A stretch of DNA of 64,000 nucleotides from Botryllus schlosseri (Eukaryota): contig CM119371.1 of NCBI GenBank assembly GCA_051294905.1, forward strand, positions 29,080,001 to 29,144,000, read 5' to 3'. Shown in pieces: positions 14,270 through 59,280 of the stretch. Every line of letters begins with the position of its first letter. Within the stretch, counting starts at the first letter, position 1. The notes beneath the pieces are model-generated. The model had not been told where the DNA came from. It saw only the letters and a program-made list of their open reading frames with translations, and did no database searches. A program made the position numbers and the translations under genes.

Positions 14270-14870
14270 CGCACCGATCGATGTGTGACCACGTTTAACA
14301 CGGTATCATGTGGGTGTGTCGTTATAATGTTCGCCATTGCATGGAGACAATCGTTATATTCACGGACAGCATTCAGCATTGGATGAATGCATATAGTATC
14401 ACCTTTTGAGTGAACGGTTTGACTGAATCAAGTCCACAACTAATTGATCACTTATGTTATCACACATGCGAGCTAGTACTGGTTTACGTCCGGTACTTAT
14501 GTTATCACACATGCGAGCTAGTACTGGTTTACGTCCGGTTCTGAGTTCACTTGACGACTGAATTCCATAATAACAATTTGCGTTATGCAAGCATTTTTGT
14601 TCTATCCCTTATACTCTATATTTCGAACGGACGGTACCAGTTAGTGGTGATTACCCCAGTTGACGTTGCATTTCTTTGTTAAGATCCGTGAGAGTCGACT
14701 GACTGGCACCGGGAACATCTGTTTGATTGTTGCCATTATTCTGATGTTCGTTCAACACGAACAACTGGTTTCGTTAACTTTTTATATCCGGTTACTTGTC
14801 GACATAACGAGTTGTCCATCGCTACATGCATCCTGTGACAGACTTGTTGAGATGCGTTCTGCGTTGGAGA
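14270..14870 (-). pseudogene. SF3-helicase-like relic, type 1
   Basis: Minus strand reads ERISTSLSQDACSDGQLVMSTSNRI*KVNE...IMATIKQMF...NATSTGVITTN...NRSLKR*; nucleotide homology to 24175-24420. Confidence 0.6.
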
Positions 14871-24174: not shown

Positions 24175-24810
24175 AGAACGGTTTGACCGAAAGAAGTCCA
24201 CAACTAATTTACCAATGAGGTTCTCGCGTGATTACCGCGATTGTTGGTGCATTTTTCACGCGCCGTGAAATATCTGTTTGATTGCAGCCATAATTCCGAT
24301 GTTTTTCCAGAACGAAAGGCCGGCGTCGTCAACTTTCAAGATTCGGCTATTTGTCGACATAACTAGTTGGCCAACACCACATGCATCCTGGAGCATACTT
24401 GTTGAAATGCGTTCTGGGAAAAACAAAGCAATAGGCTGAGCAGTGATTTTCCCTCGAGTAGTATGTGTGGTGAATCCGCCACATCTTTACCAGGAGCCTC
24501 TATTGCAGCACACAGCAAACAAACCAATGACTCGTTATCGTTTATTATATGTCCTTTCAGCGTTGCCTTCGTGGCAGATGCAGTCAATATTTTGTTAACA
24601 ATCTCAAGCGCGTGGGACAGCGTCATGTTGTTGTGTGCCCGCCACTTCGCCGTTAGCTCAATTGCACGGATATGACTAACCGAAACATTTGTGGCCACTG
24701 TTGGTAACTGCGAGTTATAAACGTTGCAGGAGCCATGAATCCCAGTTTCTCGCACAAATAATGTCCTTCGCTTTCTTCGCGGGTCGTACCCGCCGCATAA
24801 GCATGATGCG
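24175..24810 (-). pseudogene. Parvovirus NS1/Rep-like SF3 helicase relic, type 2, copy 1
   Basis: MTLSHALEIVNKILTASAT; PHILLEG--KS (Walker A partly deleted); QDACGVGQLVMSTNSRILKVDDAG (Walker B at 24325-24342); IMAAIKQIFHG; IAVIT. Confidence 0.65.
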
Positions 24811-24874: not shown

Positions 24875-27340
24875 TTCGTGTCCTGAATGTAGATTTATTC
24901 CATTCAGTCCAGATATGAAAGCCCCCCTCGCACATAATGGCGGAGAGGAATCTCAAATCGTGGACTCCCGCGTCATTGCACTTCAGAAGGTTCTAGGCGA
25001 TTCTTCCACAGCACTCGCAGCATTTATCGTCTTCGGGCGTCCCCTTGCTTTTTCCGGTCGGCATAGGCATGAGATTGCCACGAATTTCGACGGCCCCGAT
25101 ATAATTTCGCCCAGTAATAGGGGGGGTGCTCATTTTATCTACTCTTGGGCTTTCTGCAGTTCATTGGGGGGCTTTGAGGCCGCTACCATCCACGCGGCCA
25201 TCAGACGCTCTCGCATCCGGGCCGCCAGTGTCTCGTTGGTGTCCGTGGCTGAACACAACGGTTTCCGTGCGCTACGATAGGCGAATTCACCGCTTCGTCC
25301 TTTTTACGCCTTGGAGGCCAATCTCCGGGCTTCAGCACCGGTGTTTGTTGACTGAGTGACATAACACCTAGCCCGCCGTCGCCCTGATTCGAGTGGACAA
25401 ACGCGATCGGTGTATCCTTCGGGAGCCTAAGCCACCCCCGGACCGCCTCCCTCACCAGACGATCCATGCGACTCAAATATTCTTTGGTTGCATTCGCAAG
25501 CACCAGCTGATGTAACATAGTACATTAAGGTTGTGTTCTTCATTCATCTGATCTCCAATAACACGCAACACGCAAGGTCAATGATACCAAAGCAGGATCA
25601 CCTTCGCTCATCACAGTACTTTCTGAGCTCGTGTTACATAACTGAACTGTTTCCTGTACAGTTCCTTTGTTATCCGGCGACAGGTCGGGATCACGTTCTG
25701 CTCTGTCAGAGATAAACATTGTCAGAAGATGCCATGCTTGGTTTTCAACAGCTCTTTCCTCCTCAGTCGGCTGTCTTGTGTATGAACCTTCCCCACCAAC
25801 AGCTCCCTGGACCGCCCCACCAACAGCTCCCAGGACCGAAGACGATCCATGCGACTCAGATATCCTTCGGTCGCATTCGCAAGCACCAGCTAATGGAGCA
25901 TAGCTGGTAGTACGTGTTTGTTCAGTACGCACATACGCTGAAGCGGTTTCAAGGCAGCTCTTATAAGTTCGGAAAGCTTCTTTCTCAGACGGTCCGTTAC
26001 TTGGGCTCTGGTGTTTCAAGCATTGATTGCTACCCCGAGGTATTCGAACGAATCCGCAGGGCTCTCACGGACGCGCTGGCAACCCTCACGATGAAAGAAG
26101 GGTTGACCGCGCAGAGGTGTTATTCTTGCCGTCAGTCTGGATAAACAGACTTGCGCACTTCAGCGGGTTGATCTTAAGCCCGCATTCCGTCAGTTGCGAT
26201 TCAAGTTCCGCCAACTGCATCTGTAATGCCTTAGGATTCATGGCCGTAAGGATTATATCGTCGGCGAACGCCATGTGCGAGACACTGGCGCCCGCCAACT
26301 CAAAACCCAGTTCGCCATCTACTCGCGACCGGACCCAGTCAATGACTGTGTTAAATGAGACCAGATGTTGGATCACCCTGCCGGACGCCAGCACGGGTCG
26401 GTATGTTGTCTGGCCGAGACCCGGATACGCTAAGGCGAGTCGATAGAACGCTGAGGCCGGGGAAGGGGGCCGGGGCCCCCATTCTTCGCGACGCCGCAAG
26501 GATGGAATCTTGTGACACCGAGTCAAACGCCTTGGCTATCAACCGACACAAGGCACAGTTGCTTCCTCTTCTCCTACGCACAACCTATAAGCGTCTGCAG
26601 CAGAAAGGTATTCTGCAGGAGGCCGTCCCCTGGGCGTAAACGCCTTTCAGCGCGGATTCAGATTTAACCCGGCTTCCAGGCGCTGAGCCAGGATTCGATG
26701 AAAGGCTCTAAGAGTCACGTTAACTAACGTGATTGGACGATGTTCCGCCGGATCCGTCGTACCTTTCACTTTGGGTATTAGGATTGTATAAGCATCCTGG
26801 CGCCCGCCGGAGGATACGATGCGAGGAGACGGAGGTTGTAATTCGCTCTAAAGGTTTCCCTATCGAGCGATCGCGGCTCCTCGACGTCCGTCGGGTCTAT
26901 GTGCAGCGGCTTTCATTGTTCTTGAAGCCGCATCCAGCTCTGGTCTCTCGACCGGCCGGGCCAACTCCCATACCGTGGGGCTCAAAGACTCAGGCTCAGG
27001 GCCATTTCTGTCTCGAATATACCACGCCAGAACTCCTCGGCTTTCGCGGGGTGGAGCGGCACAGTGGCGGACTCTCTATGTTCACCGGATAAAACCCAAC
27101 GTGCACATTCCCCTCTGTTCATTCGGAATTTCCTCCGGCAGTGCCAGTAGTCCCAGCGCTTTTTCTCCAGAGGTCGGGAGGGTGGAGCAGGTTGCTTGCG
27201 CGCCACCGGGCGGGGTCTTTCGGGTCGACCGAACACCTCACGGTATTTGAGATCCACGAGCCTTCTGGTCTCCTCAGGATTGTCGAGGTCAAGTGTCTGT
27301 GGGTGGACCACAATGAGCTGGTGAGTCCTTGCAGAAAATA
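24875..27340 (-). mobile_element. Decayed R2-like (RLE-type) non-LTR retrotransposon: RT and thumb domains
   Basis: RPITLVNV..RAFHRILAQRL, AKAFDSVS, GVRQGDP, HMAFADDIIL, GLKINPLKC, VRGWLRLPKDTPIAFVHS..GDGGLG; ~390 bp of the endonuclease region is missing relative to 47820-48207. Confidence 0.9.
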
Positions 27341-44580: not shown

Positions 44581-45269
44581 TGCGGTGTACAGTATTACAC
44601 TTGAGGTCAGAGATGCCACTCCTGGGTTTTTCCACCCAGATCTGGGTTTTTCTAGCATCACCTGGGTTTCTGGGTTTTTGTGCTTGAAATCTGGGTTTTT
44701 TTCAACATCATGTTTGTCAGGTCAATTTTACGGCGCAAAATTGATTTGGATTAGTAAGATCTTCTAATGTCGACGGATTCCACTGTGATTGAAACGGCAG
44801 AGTCCAAAGAGACCCATTTACTATTAAAATGAGAGGTCTTGGCGTGATGCGATAGAGCTTTATTGAATACTGACTACTAGGTCGCAAAAAGTCATGTTCA
44901 CAGGGCAACTCTGATTTAGGACTTGAATGCTACCGGTAGCGCTGCAACAAATTGTTGTGTGTCAGTAAATAGTATGTAACTGCTGTAAAGTATGCAATTT
45001 AAGCACATGGAAAGACCAATTGTTGATCTAACTAATTTACCGTGTTGACATCAGAGTATATTCGCTTTCAACAGGGACACTCAAAGAGAGACATTTTGGG
45101 CAACCGGGCTAGTTATTCAGAGTGAGAGGGGTTTGTTAAATCCAAATGTACTCTTAATTTCCTGATTTGGCAGTTTCTTTTTCGACTAAACATCCCAGAT
45201 AAAAGTGGGGATAGATGGGGATTAGCATTGTTACTAACATTACGAATATATAATACACTACGTATTGAC

Positions 45270-45365
45270 TAGAGGTCGACCGATATTGATTTTTACAGGC
45301 CGATACCGATACCGATATTTCGACGCTCACCAGGCCGATAACCGATATCATAGGCCGATATTAAT
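45270..45365 (+). mobile_element. Orphan hAT end with CCGATA subterminal repeats
   Basis: tagaggtcgaccgata followed by several ccgata motifs; no partner end found. Confidence 0.55.
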
Positions 45366-45661
45366 ATGGAAGGAGCAGAGAACTATTTCGCCAAAAATAT
45401 TATATATTAGGCAACGTGGCACTTGTTCGTGCCACAGAAAGGTGAACAACAAACGAGAAAACTGAAATCGAAAAGACTTATTGCTTAATTGTGAACATTC
45501 GTTGAAATTTGGGATAACCCGAAAATCAAAACGTTGTTGATTAGTTTTGAATGTTGTTAAATTGGTGACCTGCGGTCTGCTATATAGTCAAAAGATGTTA
45601 GCTTTGCCCAAACGTAGCAGACAAAACTAAAATTTATTTCTTGTGACGCATACACGAATTA

Positions 45662-46580
45662 TCATGTCTTCACGTGTCGCATCAATTTACTCTGTGGCTT
45701 TCTTTGGTAACACACTTTGTGGAGTCGAATGTTCGCCCAAACTAAATATTGCTGTTTCGACGGTGTTCCGGCTTCCGATGTCACGGCATTTGACGAGATT
45801 GCCGTATTTGACGTGGACGTTCCTTCAGAGGAACGCCGATTTAATTGCGACAACAGGTTCTTGCGAGCGATTGTCTCGCTGCTCGCGCTGTAGCTGTTCT
45901 TGTGGATGTAATCGACGTGTGCTACTTTAGCAAGCGTTTCCAATGACGGCTTTTTCCGAAATTCAGCGTTATGCGGTTTAATAGCTGACATCTCCGACAC
46001 TTTTAACGGATGATTCACAGCCCACATTGCGAGCCTCACTTGAATTGCCAACGAAAACATGGCGTTGGATGTTCGAACGTAGCTGTTCACGATATCCTTG
46101 AAGATGCCGCAATCTTCCGCTGGATTCAGCAAGTTCTTGAATCGTTTCAATCTAGCGGCACATTCGTTCTGGCTCATGTCCCGCCTCCTGTTTGGATTTT
46201 CGTTGTTATTCCAAAACACTTCAAGGACTTTGCTGAGCTCCTCCATTTTGCTGCTCCAGATGTTCTTGACGTCAGGGTTAGTCAAGCAACTCGCTTTCAG
46301 GTGTTATGTTTTTGCACTTAATGACCGTCTCGGCCAATTCGGACAGTGCGTATCCTGGTCTGTGAAGCCATTCGCAAGAAAAGGTTTGCAGACGTTTTTC
46401 GATAATCTCTGCGGTAAGCTCGTACGAATCCGTTGGATGTCCGTAAGGACGCAGAAAATCCTTCGGGAAGTGATAGTAGTACTTGATTTTCTCCTTCTCG
46501 CTTTTCGTTGGCGTTTTTTGAAACGGCCACCAGTTCGAAGCCACCAGACGAGTTATTGTCGCGAGTTCACAAGTATCCAC
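45662..46580 (-). pseudogene. ~300-codon gene of unknown function with one frameshift, directly downstream of the SF3 helicase relic
   Basis: Overlapping ORFs 46278-46580 and 45662-46285 with protein-like composition (FLRPYG...RLQTFSCEWLHRPGYALSELAETV; AMFSLAIQVRLAMWAVNHP; FRKKPSLETL); AATAAA at 45633-45638 (minus). Confidence 0.65.
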
Positions 46581-47104
46581 TAAGTTCCAGATGACGGCTT
46601 TCCTCTTTGTTCTGGAGAGCGTGACTTCACGTATGGTATTTGACCATGGTACCTACGACTGCCAGCACCTCGATAGGTTAGTGACGTCAGTGGTCAGCGT
46701 GAAGTCCTTTGAGCCCCTTCCCGTGTTTCATTTTTCACATAGTAGTTACCAATGCATCGCCTGCATTGGTGCTGTTTGCAGGCAAAACTTAACCGCATCA
46801 GAGTATGATAAATATGTAAAAGAACGGGGCACATCGGTAGTTATTCGCGGACAGGTCGGGCTAATGAGTTATGCGGCACTCCCCTTAGTGAGTTAGTTGG
46901 CAAGGCTGGCACGATATGTTTACTTCGGTGCGTAACGCCGGACAATGCCCAATATTGACTGCAAGACGCCGAGACGTCAGCCAGATGAGGCTTCGAATTG
47001 CAGCACGTTCGGTTAACACACAACAATGTCTTGGTTGTAATGGCTGTCCTGCGGTTCGTGTGAATCACCATCTTATAAAACACCGGGCTATGATGTAATG
47101 TTCC

Positions 47105-47640
47105 ATGTTTGATTGCAGCCATAATTCCGATGTTTTCTAAAACGAAAGGTCGGCGTCAACTTTAAAGATTCGGCTATTTGTCGACACAACTAGTTGGCCA
47201 ACACCACATGCATCCTGGGGCATATGCGTTCTGGGAAAAACAAAGTAGTAAGCAGTGTTTTGCCTGCTCCAGCCTCACCCTTGAGTAGTATGTGTGGTGA
47301 TTCCGCCACATCTTTACCTCGAGCCTCGATCGCAGCACAGAGCAAACAAACCAATGACTCGCTATCGTTTATTATATGTCCTTGCAGCGTTGCCTCCGTG
47401 ACAGATGTAGTCAATTAGTTGTTACAAATCTCAAGCGCGTGGGACAGCGTCATGTTGTTCTGTGCCCGCCTCTTCACCGATAGCTCAATTGCACGGATGT
47501 GACTAACCGAAACTATTTGTGGCCACTGTTGGTAACTGCGAGTTATGAACGTTGCAGGAGCCATGAATACCAGTTCGTCGCGCAAATAATGTCCTTCGCT
47601 TTCTTCGCGGGTCGTACCCGCCGCATAAGCTTGATGCGAA
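47105..47640 (-). pseudogene. Parvovirus NS1/Rep-like SF3 helicase relic, type 2, copy 2
   Basis: NWYSWLLQR/ITRSYQQWPQ, MTLSHALEI, PHILLKGEAGAGKT (Walker A at 47256-47279), DA.GVGQL, degenerate FKVD Walker B, IMAAIK. Confidence 0.7.
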
Positions 47641-47699
47641 ATCCCGTTGAGCTTTCCATGGGGCTTCAGTGCCAGTCTTTCAGGCCCGACATCTTGTCC

Positions 47700-48350
47700 G
47701 TGTTCGTGTCCTGAACGTGGATTTATTCCATTCAGTCCAGATATGAAAGCCCCCCTTTCACACAATGGAGGAGAGGACTCTCAAATCGTGGACTCCCGCG
47801 TCCTTGCACTTCAGAAGGATATCGGCGCTCTCTACGCACCATCCGCCAAGCCAGTTTAAAACAATGGCGCCGTGGACCACTCGGTCCACTTTCGCCCGGA
47901 CGTAATCCAAGTATTTATTCCCTCCGTCCGATATTTATCACTTTTCTTGCGGAATTCTGCCGCCAGGGTGGCATTATTCGCGACGATGGTAATGTCCACC
48001 ACCCTGGCGACCTTCTCATCCTTATTGATAAGGACGAGGTCGGGTTTAGGGAGTCCACTCTTCGTTTTGATATGTGGCTCCCACCAAGCTTCTTCGCCGT
48101 GCTTTTTAGCTTTATGCAAGACTAAGCGAGCGACGCGATCGTGGCGTCTAATTCGGGCGGCATGCGTCCTGGGGCACACTTATGTATGAGTATGTGCCCC
48201 AGCGACGCGATTCTTCCACAGCACTCGCAGCGTTTATCGACTTCGGGCGTCCCCTTGCATTTCCGGCCAGCATAGGCATGAGATTGCCACGAATTTCGAC
48301 CCCCCTATATAATTTCGCCCTATAAGGGGGGGGTGGTGCTCTTTCTATCC
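47700..48350 (-). mobile_element. R2-like retrotransposon C-terminus: zinc knuckle and restriction-like endonuclease
   Basis: CPRTHAARIRRHDRV, EPHIKTKSGLPKPDLVL..VVDITIV, KKSDKY, then IVLNWLGGW...DLRVLS...GGFHIW. Confidence 0.9.
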
Positions 48351-48708
48351 ACTCCTGCCTGCATTTATCGGTTGGCCTGTCGGAATTCTCAGCCTCCGAC
48401 TTTCCGCCAGTGGAACCGGTTTCGCTGCCGGAGCTTTCCGTTGAGGAGCTGTCGCTCGTGCTGACTAACAGCATCTTCTTCGGTTTGTTATACCCCGGCT
48501 TAACCGAAACGATCGCGACATCGCTGTCGCTACTCATGCTGTAGGCCGGTTCATCGTCATCGAGCAGCACGATCAATCTTTCTCGTTTTGCTTTTTCTCC
48601 CAATTTCATTCGCTCCATTTTGTTCGCCATTTGGCGATCTTGCCGTTCCCCGGACTCTTTGTCAAAGCCGCACATGGTGCAGAACCATTTATGATTACAA
48701 TTATCCAT
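48350..48708 (-). pseudogene. Small zinc-ribbon gene 1 (MDNCNHKWFCTMCG) with acidic/Ser-rich tail, fused to R2 sequence
   Basis: ORF 48148-48726; acceptor-like ttttcgcag lies 5 nt before the ATG at 48708. Confidence 0.5.
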
Positions 48709-48809
48709 TATATCTGCGAAAAACAAGATCTCATGTTATTCGTCAGGTTTTCGCTCGCCTTTCAGACGGGGGCCGGGTCGACGCCCGCTCATGCATTCCC
48801 CCGGCATAT

Positions 48810-49700
48810 TAGTCATTCTTCAGAAACCCTGGCGACTTTTTTCGGCTCGGCCGACTTCGAAAAAAAGCGACGGCGCACCGCCTCGAGCGCATATCGTGCT
48901 CTGAGCGTCGTTCGGTCTGGCCGTGAGGCCGACACGTCCGAGTCAGTTTTTCGGACAGTGATCGATTTCGAGAAAACAATTTGCGAAAAAAAAATGGCCC
49001 CGACGAGCCGTCGAAGCGACCCGTCGAGACCCCAACTGAAACCGTCACCTTCACCTTCACCGTCACCGATATCTCAAATCCGAACTATTGCGATAACGCA
49101 AAGTCGATGTCCGTAATGTGCTCCCCCACTACTCGCCTGGCAAAATCTCGAATTCTCGCGAGGAGTTCTCGCAAGCGGTTCCTGCAAGGCAAACGCAAGT
49201 CGTTTACGCATTTCGGAGTTATCCCTTCGCACTCAAAGCTCGTCGATGTGGAGCTGACTTCTCACGTAATCACGGTCGGACGCCTCTTCCTCGGCCGGAT
49301 CACTTCCGCTCGTACGCGGCATCCCACACTGGGAGCATACCCATTCGTGTTTGCATTTAGGATTAGCGCTCATTTTAATGCTGTAAACGCAAAGTCATAG
49401 CGTCATGCGAGGCTGAACGATATCATCGAGTCGAGGTGGAGGCCGGGTAATCAACCCGCTCATGCGGCCCCCCACCACTTTAGTCCTTTTTCAGAAACCC
49501 TGCTGACTTTATTCGGCTCGAACAAGTTCGAAAAAAGCGACGACACGCCGCCTCGAAGGGCTCAGACGCCCGACTCAAACATATCGTGCTTGGGACTCGC
49601 TCGGTCTGCCCTTCAGGCCGAGGCGCCCGGGCGACTTGTCGAACGGTCCGACCTCGAAAAAAAACTTGGCGAAAAAAAAAGACCCGATCGACCGCCGAAG
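48810..49700 (+). repeat. Diverged ~220-bp direct repeat pair (48810-49030 and 49481-49700)
   Basis: tagtc.tt.ttcagaaaccctg..gacttt.ttcggctcg...ttcgaaaaaagcgacg...cgcctcga...catatcgtgct is shared. Confidence 0.85.
49233..49373 (-). pseudogene. Small zinc-ribbon gene 2 (MSANPKCKHEWVCSQCG), probably prematurely stopped
   Basis: 46-codon ORF read manually; acceptor-like tttacag lies 7 nt before the ATG; the frame stays open after the TGA. Confidence 0.5.
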
Positions 49701-56949: not shown

Positions 56950-57540
56950 AGTCGGACGCACCGATCGATGTGTGACCATGACCACGTTTAACACGGTATC
57001 ATGTGGGTGTGTCGTTATAATGTTCGCCATTGCATGGAGACAATCGTTATATTCACGGACAACATTCAGCATTGGATGAAGGCATATAGTATCACCTTTT
57101 GAGTGAACGATTTGACTGAATCAAGTCCACAACTAATTGATCACTTATGTTATCCCACATGCGAGCTAGTACTGGTTTACGTCCGGTTCTGAGTTCACTT
57201 GACGACTGAATTCCATAATAACAATTTGCGTTATGCAAGCATTTTTGTTCCATCCCTTATAATACTCTATATTTTGAACGGACGGTACCAGTTAGTGGTG
57301 ATTACCCCAGTTGACGTTGCATTTCTTTGTTAAGATCCGTGAGAGTCGACTGACTGGCACCGTGAACATCTCTGTTTGATTGTTGCCATTATTCTGATGT
57401 TCGTTCTACACGAACAACTGGTTTCGTTAACTTTTTATATCCGGTTACTTGTCGACATAACGAGTTGTCCATCGCTACATGCATCCTGTGACAGACTTGT
57501 TGAGATGCGTTCTGCATTGGAGACCGTGCGATTTTGCTGC
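56950..57540 (-). pseudogene. SF3-helicase-like relic, type 1, duplicate
   Basis: Paralog of 14270-14870, including GVITTN. Confidence 0.6.
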
Positions 57541-57923: not shown

Positions 57924-59280
57924 GAGAGAGAGAGTCTTTATTTTCGTCGAACCAAAATACATAACAAACGGCAGTGATGGTGGTACAGAAAATGTGTGCA
58001 CAGTATTAGATAGGAATGATCGATAAGACCGAGAAGGTCATCTAGTCTGATCACACCATCATCAAACAGGTACACTTGACTCTGAACAGTCTGGCTGCAA
58101 AAAATGTTAAGTTAAAGGAAAATAAAAAGAAAATCAAACAATGGTAGCAAATGATCAATGAAGCAGTGTCTAGGTTAGGTAGGGCAACAATATGAATGTA
58201 ACGACTAGAGATGAACTATTATAAGGCAATCCCTAAAATCTATTATAAGGCAATCCCTAAAATCTATTATAAGGCAATTCACGCATATGTGGTGGTAATG
58301 CATTCGCGATGATAGGTCTCGATTAGTCGATATATCTCTTAGTTAAGTTGCTATTGGGTGGGGGTAAGTAGATGTTTCCTTTAGACGAGGATATCGTGTA
58401 ATGGGAATGGACATGTTTAGCAGGTATAAAAGAGCCATCAAACACAGGAGGCAGACTATTGGAAACGCATTTGTGGACAACTTTTGATACTTTGAAGCGA
58501 TGTAATTAATCAACTCGCAAAATTCGATGCTTACGGTATTAAGGCGATAAATTGGTACGTGAAGGTACAGATGAGATCAGCCGTGTCGCACGGTTTTGCA
58601 GCGTTCGAATTTTGCACAAAAATGTTGTCACAGCATTTCCCCATACTACGATTCCATATTGCAGATGAGAGTGAAAAAGAGAGAATTAGGTGGTTCGTAG
58701 TACTGATCTGGAAACCAACGATTGGAGACGGGTCATTATTCCCACAATCCGAGCTAGTTTTGATATTGTGCATTCAATATGCTGCTTCCAATACAATTTT
58801 GAATCAATGGTGACGCCGAGATATTTTGCTGTGTCACATATTGAGATTTGTTTATGATTGAGATTTGTTTATGATTGATGTTCACAATGAAATTATGACT
58901 GGCATTTTTTAAAACGAGCATCTCGGTCTTATCTGCATTCAAACTTGAGGAGTCTGTTTGCTTGGATCCATCTCGACACTTTTGGGAGTTCCCTATTCAC
59001 AGATGCATGCAAACCATCGATAGTGTTAGAGGTTATGAAGAGGTCAGTATCATCAGCAAATAGCGTTGTGCGAAATAAAGATGCATTAACGCTGTCGTTA
59101 ATATACATGAGGAAAAAAGTCGGTCCAATGACTAAGCCTTGTGGCACTCCACAAGTTATATCTCTAGCAGTCGTTCTTAATGTCCCCAGTTTAACAAATT
59201 GTTTGCGGTTTGTCAGGTAGCATGCAAGTAGAGTTGCTGTAATACCCCTAATGCCATCCCCAAATTAGAATGAATATCTT
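57924..59280 (-). mobile_element. CR1/L2-group LINE, duplicate
   Basis: Paralog of 15586-16890; identical PQGLVIGPTFFLMYIND / LFADDT translation. Confidence 0.9.

Follow-up and report, generated by a model that had tools for sequence, protein, structure and literature searches.

A Probable Fossil Rep Fragment of a Divergent Single-Stranded DNA Virus Lineage in the Genome of Botryllus schlosseri

A Decayed Rep Remnant on the Minus Strand

The window studied here is a stretch of 64,000 nucleotides from Botryllus schlosseri (assembly GCA_051294905.1, contig CM119371.1, positions 29,080,001 to 29,144,000 of the forward strand), and positions given below without a contig are counted from its first letter. 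On its minus strand, at 47591-47084, it carries a remnant of about 170 codons related to Rep, the replication initiator of small single-stranded DNA (ssDNA) viruses. This remnant is probably a dead Rep fragment of a small ssDNA virus from a divergent lineage that was endogenised. An earlier note, made from the sequence alone, had assigned the whole of 45630-47640 to a parvovirus NS1/Rep-like superfamily 3 (SF3) helicase together with a partner gene. Rep homology was recovered within this interval, but at 47591-47084 only; the remainder consists of other sequence, and 45662-46652 belongs to a different gene. The remnant contains the following features:

47084..47591, minus strand: Rep remnant, comprising the linker/oligomerisation region and the first half of the SF3 ATPase core (tblastn with the L015, L018, L019 and L030 open reading frames)
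47415..47417, minus strand: in-frame TAA stop following ...ALEICNN (strand reading)
47256..47279, minus strand: Walker A (P-loop), GEAGAGKT (translation; column G..G.GK(T/S) conserved in a 31-sequence alignment)
47194..47214, minus strand: DACGVGQ, representing the family signature D(S/A)xGVGQ, with Walker A before and Walker B after it
47149..47169, minus strand: damaged Walker B, IFKVDAD as compared with ILKVDDA in relatives, one codon short (alignment 'SRIFKV-DADLSF*')

Both ends of the remnant are truncated, and its reading is broken at one in-frame stop and by two or more frameshifts. When compared with the intact paralogous open reading frame (ORF) L015 by tblastn, it matched residues 70-241 with an E-value of 9e-64. 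The peptides on the minus strand are ...FITRSYQQWPQ...MTLSHALEICNN(stop)...ILLKGEAGAGKT...DACGVGQL...IFKVDAD. In the frame common to the relatives, the window copy reads ...ELVFMAPATFITRSYQQWPQIVSVSHIRAIELSVKRRAQNNMTLSHALEICNN, the TAA stop (47417-47415) and LTTSVTEATLQGHIINDSESLVCLLCAAIEARGKDVAESPHILLKGEAGAGKTLLTTLFFPE. As the frame of DACGVGQ differs from that of Walker A, a frameshift has to be placed near 47211-47229. After this first frame change the copy continues with ...MPQDACGVGQLVVSTNSRIFKVDADLSF and a stop, which follows the damaged Walker B; the second frameshift lies near 47137 and leads into ENIGIMAAIK. The D, G, V and G residues of the D(S/A)xGVGQ signature show a conservation of 90% or more in alignment A2. 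Besides the nuclease domain, the window copy lacks motifs B' and C, these two because homology ends at 47084, and an HUH nuclease region was found in the window neither by tblastn nor by our own nuclease-domain profile or tblastx.

Most of the peptides quoted in the earlier note are present in the sequence, while the merged peptide constructed from them exists in no single copy and is spread over two. Its segment 'WYSWLLQR' is an out-of-frame reading; the frame common to all relatives gives ELVFMAPATFITRSYQQW, so that the alignment by eye with 'GWLVDKGITSEKQW' of adeno-associated virus (AAV) falls in part. Pfam and PHROGs scans of seven ORF pieces from the window gave nothing above the cut-offs, and a word-index homology search with a 118-residue read-through of the remnant gave no match among longer proteins. 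Four RNA runs with the same species label were mapped, about 6-13% of each being read, and in none of the four did reads fall on 45536-49000 at a likeness of 97% or more. Taken together, the stop, the frameshifts and the lack of RNA in the runs examined indicate that the window copy does nothing now. The sole part of 45000-49000 with RNA reads was a repeat at 45268-45535, where the reads fit partially and run into unlike sequence; they therefore stem from other copies of a transcribed repeat.

Intact Relatives and Phylogenetic Placement

With the 118-residue read-through, in which the stop is given as X, 31 candidate places in the B. schlosseri genome were scored, and at least 28 of these match on the protein level. 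Intact copies, for which the earlier note had proposed to search, do exist, with open frames of 403-563 amino acids (aa): L018 (454 aa), L019 and its duplicate L020 (403 aa), L030 (563 aa) and L032 (447 aa). Many copies cluster on contig C3. The aligned ORFs from this genome share G.(A/P)GAGKTLL, D..GVGQ, (K/Q).DDA..FW, MFH..WSAK.HGSK, IT(T/S)N and RRF. L019 (contig C1, ~13.16 Mb) and L020 (C5, ~20.77 Mb) have at least 19 kb in common at 99.6% identity, including the 403-aa Rep-like frame, and stem either from a segmental duplication of very recent date or from duplication in the assembly. Because they are located inside this duplication, neither is usable for mapping the ends of the element.

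A profile built from seven natural sequences of this genome was searched against 1.84 billion protein representatives and retrieved 62 proteins at E <= 1e-3, 29 of them at E <= 1e-30. Names were examined for 30 of the 62 matches: 'uncharacterized protein LOC120344078' belongs to the tunicate Styela clava, a further two carry the name 'hypothetical protein', the rest are unnamed, and no virus-named protein is among these 30. Several public relatives are located on contigs of 140-430 kb and are therefore integrated in large genomes. Scans of IMG/VR with two alignments found no relatives, and no description of this Rep family was found in open-access text; the lineage behind the intact relatives is thus apparently undescribed.

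A quick maximum-likelihood tree of 39 rows, several of them short and with support from the Shimodaira-Hasegawa-like approximate likelihood ratio test (SH-aLRT) only, indicated two clades. Clade A (support 98) comprises L030, L032 and public sequences including the Styela protein. Clade B (support 100, long stem) contains the window copy, L014, L015, L018, L019, L021, L023 and L024. Ratios of nonsynonymous to synonymous divergence (dN/dS) within clade B were 0.15-0.41 for the six pairs with computable dS, and the window copy differs from L015 by a dN of 0.16 and a dS of 1.06. From these ratios it follows that clade B copies diverged mostly as working genes. Our preferred reading is that they did so as free viruses before separate integrations.

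Assignment to the SF3 Helicases

In intact paralogs and homologs the motifs G.AG.GKT, K.DDA, W.AK.HG.K and IT(T/S)N are found inside about 95 residues and are followed by RRF. With motifs A, B and C in this span and SF3 proteins at the top of both fold searches described below, the SF3-type helicase proposed in the earlier note is borne out. No curated SF3 family, however, was matched at its cut-off. DUF5906 appeared below threshold in 5/26 public homologs (13.8-23.4 bits, cut-off 27.6) and RNA_helicase in 3/26 (15.0-20.0 bits, cut-off 21.5), both of which we take to be SF3 families. In the five ORFs from this genome, Parvo_NS1, RNA_helicase, DUF5906/D5 and PPV_E1_C gave no match. The Parvo_NS1, RNA_helicase and D5 profiles, among which the earlier note had proposed to look for a family match, thus provided none above the Pfam cut-off. 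Sub-threshold matches over the P-loop were obtained for AAA_16 (18-23.5 bits, cut-off 32.6) and nSTAND3 (<=21.3 bits, cut-off 27.2), and no STAND, NACHT or AAA family exceeded its cut-off across the NTPase core of the window fragment, the ORFs from this genome or the public homologs.

Fold comparisons were performed with predicted models of L030, whose core has a predicted local distance difference test (pLDDT) score of 70-90, and of the public homolog P0015 (mean pLDDT 81). The L030 model matched bovine papillomavirus E1 with a Z-score of 13.0 (root-mean-square deviation, rmsd, 3.7; 180 residues aligned) and AAV2 Rep68 with 12.6, the first non-SF3 row being ORC at rank 41 (Z 9.9). Among 48,161 chains, the P0015 model matched E1 (Z 13.4), AAV2 Rep40 (Z 12.9) and NS1 of parvovirus B19 (B19V; Z 11.0). 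Considering both models, values were 12.5-12.9 for AAV2 Rep40/68, 12.1-12.7 for NrS-1 and 11.0-11.9 for B19V NS1; further top rows were the primase-helicase of African swine fever virus (ASFV) and the poxvirus primase-helicase D5, with SF3 rows spanning Z 10-13.4. Cellular AAA+ proteins reached at most 9.9, and in either structure search ORC, RuvB and Clp came below the SF3 proteins. In a viral structure library, Parvoviridae NS1, Rep of CRESS-DNA viruses and E1 were interleaved at the head of both lists.

The Predicted N-Terminal Nuclease Domain

Most full-length homologs carry R.WAFT, (G)P.E...H(R/H)HG(I/L) and YI.YMYK in this order; R.WAFT, H(R/H)HG(I/L) and YI.YMYK are the three motifs of Rep-class HUH nucleases. 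The clade nearest to L030 has AHG with a single histidine, and clade B has GHLGLI. With the full-length P0015 model as query, residues 15-125 matched the origin-binding domain of RepB from plasmid pMV158 (Z 9.1, rmsd 2.8, 102/131 residues aligned), and large T antigen of simian virus 40 (SV40) aligned over residues 11-461, spanning both domains. The look-alikes of the N-terminal domain in a protein language model were the Rep_OBD, Viral_Rep and Gemini_AL1 clusters (score 0.91).

When the surroundings of the window copy and of the clade B copies were searched for the nuclease domain by tblastn and our own profile, it was detected in clade A copies only. An N-terminal block of clade B, MANE(F/Y)(F/Y)YM...WW(A/V)FRS...GH(L/I)GLI, is conserved in L021, L026, L029, L031 and at C1 ~13162541 and C16 ~22365058. 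Stops or frame changes, at non-conserved distances, lie between this block and the helicase frame; judged from its sequence, the block may be a diverged or inactivated nuclease domain.

An intact Rep of this family would consist of an N-terminal HUH-type nuclease/origin-binding domain, a helical linker and an SF3 AAA+ helicase. By analogy with AAV Rep and papillomavirus E1, it would nick a terminal hairpin origin, form a ring and unwind or pump ssDNA. As far as the predicted models can tell, the Rep-family protein would work like a viral Rep with HUH and SF3 domains but fits no curated sequence family.

Capsid Neighbour and Terminal Repeats in Relatives

A scan of metagenome contigs, comprising 23 loci from a handful of samples, revealed an ORF of about 430-555 aa that precedes Rep on the same strand with a gap of about 45 bp. 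Such a capsid ORF was present before Rep in L059, L060, L062, L072, L077 and L081. The upstream ORF of the L059/L060/L077 type starts MAPPSKRKYSEKGYRGGWTLPGYPHCGPFNE...QHDLEYGK. Two of the seven neighbouring ORFs scanned matched the PLA2-like domain PF08398 above its cut-off of 23.9 bits (31.9 and 31.4 bits), and the PLA2-bearing N-terminus matched solved parvovirus VP1 chains with a best E-value of 1.8e-9. Behind it lie basic and Gly-rich stretches and a region that resembles ssDNA-virus capsids, a likeness (Atlas features 0.93, mixed families) to be taken as a lead only. PLA2 was not found in the L081-type ORF or in the upstream ORF of the B. schlosseri genome, and the L081-type ORF showed no similarity to the PLA2-bearing ORF and no match in solved structures.

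Inverted arms of 27 nt surround the capsid-Rep pair at a distance of 3974 nt in L072 and of 3926 nt in L070, which corresponds to a unit of about 4.0 kb. In many copies Rep is followed by a conserved palindromic region of about 300 nt. In L065 (2602-2875), the end of one Rep gene is connected with the start of a capsid gene by a perfect 85-bp stem that encloses a 24-bp hairpin; the folding energy of this structure is -125.6 kcal/mol as compared with -28.7 +/- 3.5 for shuffles (z -27), and it has the appearance of a head-to-tail junction formed through one terminal palindrome. A capsid-Rep pair between inverted terminal repeats and a hairpin would be how a linear ssDNA virus genome ending in hairpins is built. 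Several metagenome contigs show head-to-tail or inverted rearrangements. No terminal ends are left at the window locus, and the evidence for hairpins and inverted repeats stems from the metagenome relatives.

In the B. schlosseri genome itself, the intact L030 Rep (554-aa frame from Met; contig C3, ~8427467-8432750, L030 / L051+L056) has as its upstream neighbour a long Gly-rich ORF of 742 + 200 aa, which is uninterrupted over 890 aa in a 98%-identical copy. Its position and composition suggest that it is a capsid gene. The L030 Rep has a close public relative in P0002, also a protein of 554 aa, and 98%-identical partial copies, L083 and L084, are located on C3 at ~6.59-6.61 Mb, 1.8 Mb from L030. 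L030 and its 98%-identical copies suggest recent activity or recent duplication.

Further Rep Fragments and Neighbouring Sequences in the Window

Four Rep copies, the number given in the earlier note, are present (47591-47084, 24763-24235, 57512-57270 and 14859-14619), all on the minus strand. Together with the sequences that adjoin the remnant, the further fragments are:

24235..24763, minus strand: second Rep remnant, 88% nucleotide identity to the window copy described above
57270..57512, minus strand: third Rep fragment, Walker B to motif C (VITTN), containing stops
14619..14859, minus strand: fourth Rep fragment, Walker B to motif C (VITTN), containing stops; duplicate of the third inside a duplicated block
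46541..47062, minus strand: repeat adjoining the Rep remnant, present also at three loci without Rep (L003, L009, L010)
47592..48304, minus strand: unrelated repeat upstream of the remnant, with DNA copies elsewhere (L007, L012)
45662..46652, minus strand: the 'partner gene', ORFs 46652-46278 and 46303-45662, whose frames overlap at 46278-46303

The second remnant has lost Walker A (PHILLEG-KSLLS) and B' to deletions, retains an intact Walker B (ILKVDDAG) and has a decayed motif C region (AVITRE); its peptides are MTLSHALEIVNKILTASAT, ILKVDD, IKQIFHG and AVIT. The window Rep fragment was probably later copied by segmental duplication. The third and fourth fragments lie in a duplicated block (14.6-16.5 kb / 57.3-59.3 kb) that also contains pieces of a reverse-transcriptase element, RVT_1 at 58929-59264 reaching 28.2 bits, just below the cut-off. 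The minus-strand ORFs 48148-48735 and 49233-49394, which are repeated nearby, encode a C.H.W.C..CG motif and a Ser/Asp-rich middle. A piece at 48207-48357 recurs beside the second remnant at 24997-25147. The repeat at 47592-48304 replaces the 5' part of Rep; we presume it to resemble the zinc-knuckle and PD-(D/E)xK tail of an R2-type element lacking long terminal repeats (non-LTR), for which Pfam gave no support.

The two 'partner' ORFs are one frameshifted gene of a lineage-restricted orphan family whose homologs are single ORFs of about 300-447 aa. Members are intronless, share the motif HFP(K/R)D(Y/F)LRPYG...FSCEWL(T/H)RP and have a Lys-rich tail. The family forms many tandem arrays on contig C13 of this genome at ~20.8-23.6 Mb (L045-L048), has no Pfam match and just three public relatives, all unnamed. 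Rep-like and partner-like matches share neighbourhoods tens of kilobases wide and are adjacent only here and in the duplicate of the window. As the partner belongs to a separate orphan family and the adjoining repeat also occurs without Rep, we read the adjacency as an accident of insertion and segmental duplication, and 45662-46652 is an orphan gene outside the virus-like element. The two-gene arrangement postulated in the earlier note is accordingly not supported; the real partner is the upstream capsid gene, which is absent here.

Comparison with Known Systems

With regard to known systems, Parvoviridae and Oomyviridae are the closest named kinds, and membership of neither is shown. The order of HUH nuclease, helical linker and SF3 helicase in the relatives corresponds to that in NS1/Rep of the Parvoviridae (AAV2 Rep68/Rep40, B19V NS1), as do the helicase fold (Rep40 Z 12.9, B19V NS1 Z 11.0), a VP1 with N-terminal PLA2 and basic and Gly-rich stretches, and the terminal palindromes or hairpins and the unit of about 4 kb in the metagenome relatives. 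'Parvovirus NS1' in the sense of the earlier note therefore stands as a likeness of fold and architecture and falls on the level of sequence families, where Parvo_NS1 matched 0/31 proteins (5 from this genome and 26 public homologs). Parvoviruses have EE in Walker B, whereas the family described here has DD, and the D.xGVGQ signature is specific to this family. The NS cassette of parvoviruses is located upstream of the VP cassette, or the arrangement is ambisense; in the metagenome relatives, on the other hand, the capsid gene lies upstream of Rep. In addition, the nuclease domain of the relatives looks closer to CRESS and plasmid Reps. Assignment to the Parvoviridae rests on sequence homology of the SF3 domain of NS1 (PMC13426907).

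The Oomyviridae (Lineavirales, Cressdnaviricota; formerly 'parvo-like hybrid viruses' NIH-CQV/PHV) exhibit the same combination of features, a likeness drawn from published descriptions only. These describe linear ssDNA, a CRESS-type Rep, a PLA2-containing jelly-roll capsid and endogenous copies in eukaryotes, from which stramenopiles (oomycetes) were predicted as hosts (PMC13426907, PMC12451638, PMC4419787, 10.64898/2026.04.22.720165). In contrast, the carriers found here look like animal genomes, given the homolog in Styela clava and the piggyBac-type transposase on the contig of one relative.

In structure, the ATPase core is most similar to papillomavirus E1 (Z 13.0-13.4), and large T antigen of the polyomavirus SV40 aligns over an origin-binding-like domain plus helicase; the Walker B context DDA..(F/C)W presumably also resembles E1. 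However, both proteins belong to double-stranded DNA viruses and have origin-binding domains that lost the HUH catalytic residues, whereas most relatives studied here keep H.H and Y..K, and sequence identity to this family is just 12-15%. Helitrons and Replitrons likewise encode Rep-type HUH proteins and occur in multiple copies in eukaryotic genomes. Helitrons have a two-tyrosine Rep fused to an SF1 helicase, and Replitrons are described as lacking a helicase. The helicase of the present family, by contrast, is of the SF3 type, and relatives carry a capsid gene.

Origin of the Rep Family

An endogenised, divergent Rep-encoding virus, which the earlier note had proposed alongside a transposon lineage, is supported as the source of the window fragment: no Pfam family reaches its cut-off, which marks the lineage as divergent, full-length relatives have an HUH-type domain, and a PLA2 capsid gene, terminal repeats and a hairpin in relatives speak for a virus. 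The fragment would have become part of a eukaryotic genome and would then have been copied by segmental duplication. Several observations weigh against a viral source. No Pfam cut-off, that of Viral_Rep included, was reached in the five ORFs from this genome or the 26 public homologs, Parvo_NS1 failed as stated above, and sequence searches of solved structures with L030 and profile A1 gave noise only. As no curated sequence family supports them, the SF3 and HUH assignments rest on motifs and predicted folds, and a Z-score of about 13 is just 3-4 units above generic AAA+ proteins. All rows of clade B (8/8) stem from this genome, without any public member, and no capsid-like neighbour was found for this clade, whose MANE block is collinear with motifs I and II in tblastx and too diverged for our nuclease profile. 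Since a capsid neighbour is lacking and the N-terminus is so diverged, a virus origin of clade B is extrapolated from clade A and the metagenome relatives. On the contig of one of the latter, the piggyBac-type transposase lies in the flank, and many copies are frameshifted; because of the transposase, the frameshifts and the rearrangements, the metagenome relatives are probably integrated in an animal genome. No free virus, virion or episome was seen in the data examined. The inverted arms on both sides of the L030 unit are short and imperfect (E 2e-4 each), and comparison of the Gly-rich ORF from this genome with the PLA2-bearing capsid revealed no detectable similarity (BLASTP E-value 0.31, hhalign probability 1.9%).

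Part of these observations would also be expected for a non-viral mobile element or a host-adopted Rep-only family with clade B as a transposon-like or domesticated offshoot. The restriction of all eight rows of clade B to this genome, the many copies clustered on contig C3, the long open frames of 403-454 aa with their low dN/dS (0.15-0.41) and the lack of a conserved coding neighbour between two clade B loci, except for their own N-terminal region, are all in line with such a family. We nevertheless consider it unlikely, as clade B frames are interrupted by stops and frame changes between the MANE start blocks and the helicase frame, no terminal repeats or target-site duplications are defined for clade B, and the nearest clades have a capsid gene and hairpin ends, while low dN/dS is equally expected from divergence as free viruses before integration. 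It is quite unlikely that we are dealing with an ordinary endogenous, densovirus-like element, i.e., a true but very diverged member of the Parvoviridae. In its favour, parvovirus NS1 models most often occupy the top places in the viral structure library, the N-terminus of the relatives' VP1 matches PLA2 (above the Pfam cut-off and at E 1.8e-9 to solved VP1), the relatives have hairpin ends, and parvovirus-derived elements are common in animal genomes (PMC13426907, PMC5013282). Against membership stand the SF3 sequence homology required for assignment to the family (PMC13426907), in view of the 0/31 result for Parvo_NS1, the lack of a virus-named protein among the 30/62 matches examined, the position of the capsid gene upstream of Rep on the same strand, which is not known as a parvovirus arrangement, and the CRESS-type and plasmid-type Reps as look-alikes of the nuclease domain.

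A host P-loop NTPase pseudogene of the AAA+, STAND or NACHT type without any viral link is highly improbable. In Pfam, the window fragment and many relatives match only AAA_16, AAA_22 and nSTAND over the P-loop, but all of these matches are below cut-off and cover 20-40 residues around Walker A, SF3 proteins outrank ORC, RuvB and Clp in the two structure searches, and relatives combine an HUH-like domain with terminal repeats and a neighbouring PLA2 capsid gene. The refutation envisaged in the earlier note, a host AAA+/NACHT family fitting better than SF3, was thus not borne out by either type of search. Starting from the viral origin of the window fragment, a more specific picture can be offered tentatively, though it is on balance rather doubtful as a whole: the fragment would be a fossil left by linear ssDNA viruses that colonise animal germlines, a tunicate being one named carrier, and that form an undescribed lineage of family rank, with a Rep between those of CRESS-DNA viruses and the helicases of parvoviruses and papillomaviruses, a capsid bearing a parvovirus-type PLA2 and a capsid-then-Rep order that is the reverse of parvoviruses. 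One branch in this genome, with its 98%-identical copies, intact frames of 554 and 890 aa and inverted arms on the flanks, may still be mobile, and another, clade B, may have turned into a capsid-less Rep element or a host gene family.

Implications

The window fragment alone matters little; its value is that of a pointer to a Rep family unrecognised by curated profiles, which joins a CRESS-like nuclease domain, an E1/AAV-like SF3 helicase and a PLA2-bearing capsid gene between hairpin ends. If this family constitutes a distinct lineage, it bears on the question how parvoviruses and the linear 'hybrid' cressdnaviruses (Oomyviridae) got their capsids and PLA2 domains, and on the question which hosts such viruses truly infect. 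The latter is a live one because many records of hybrid viruses are suspected to be reagent contaminants (PMC13141889). The family is also natural material for studying the retention or re-use of Rep genes in animal genomes.

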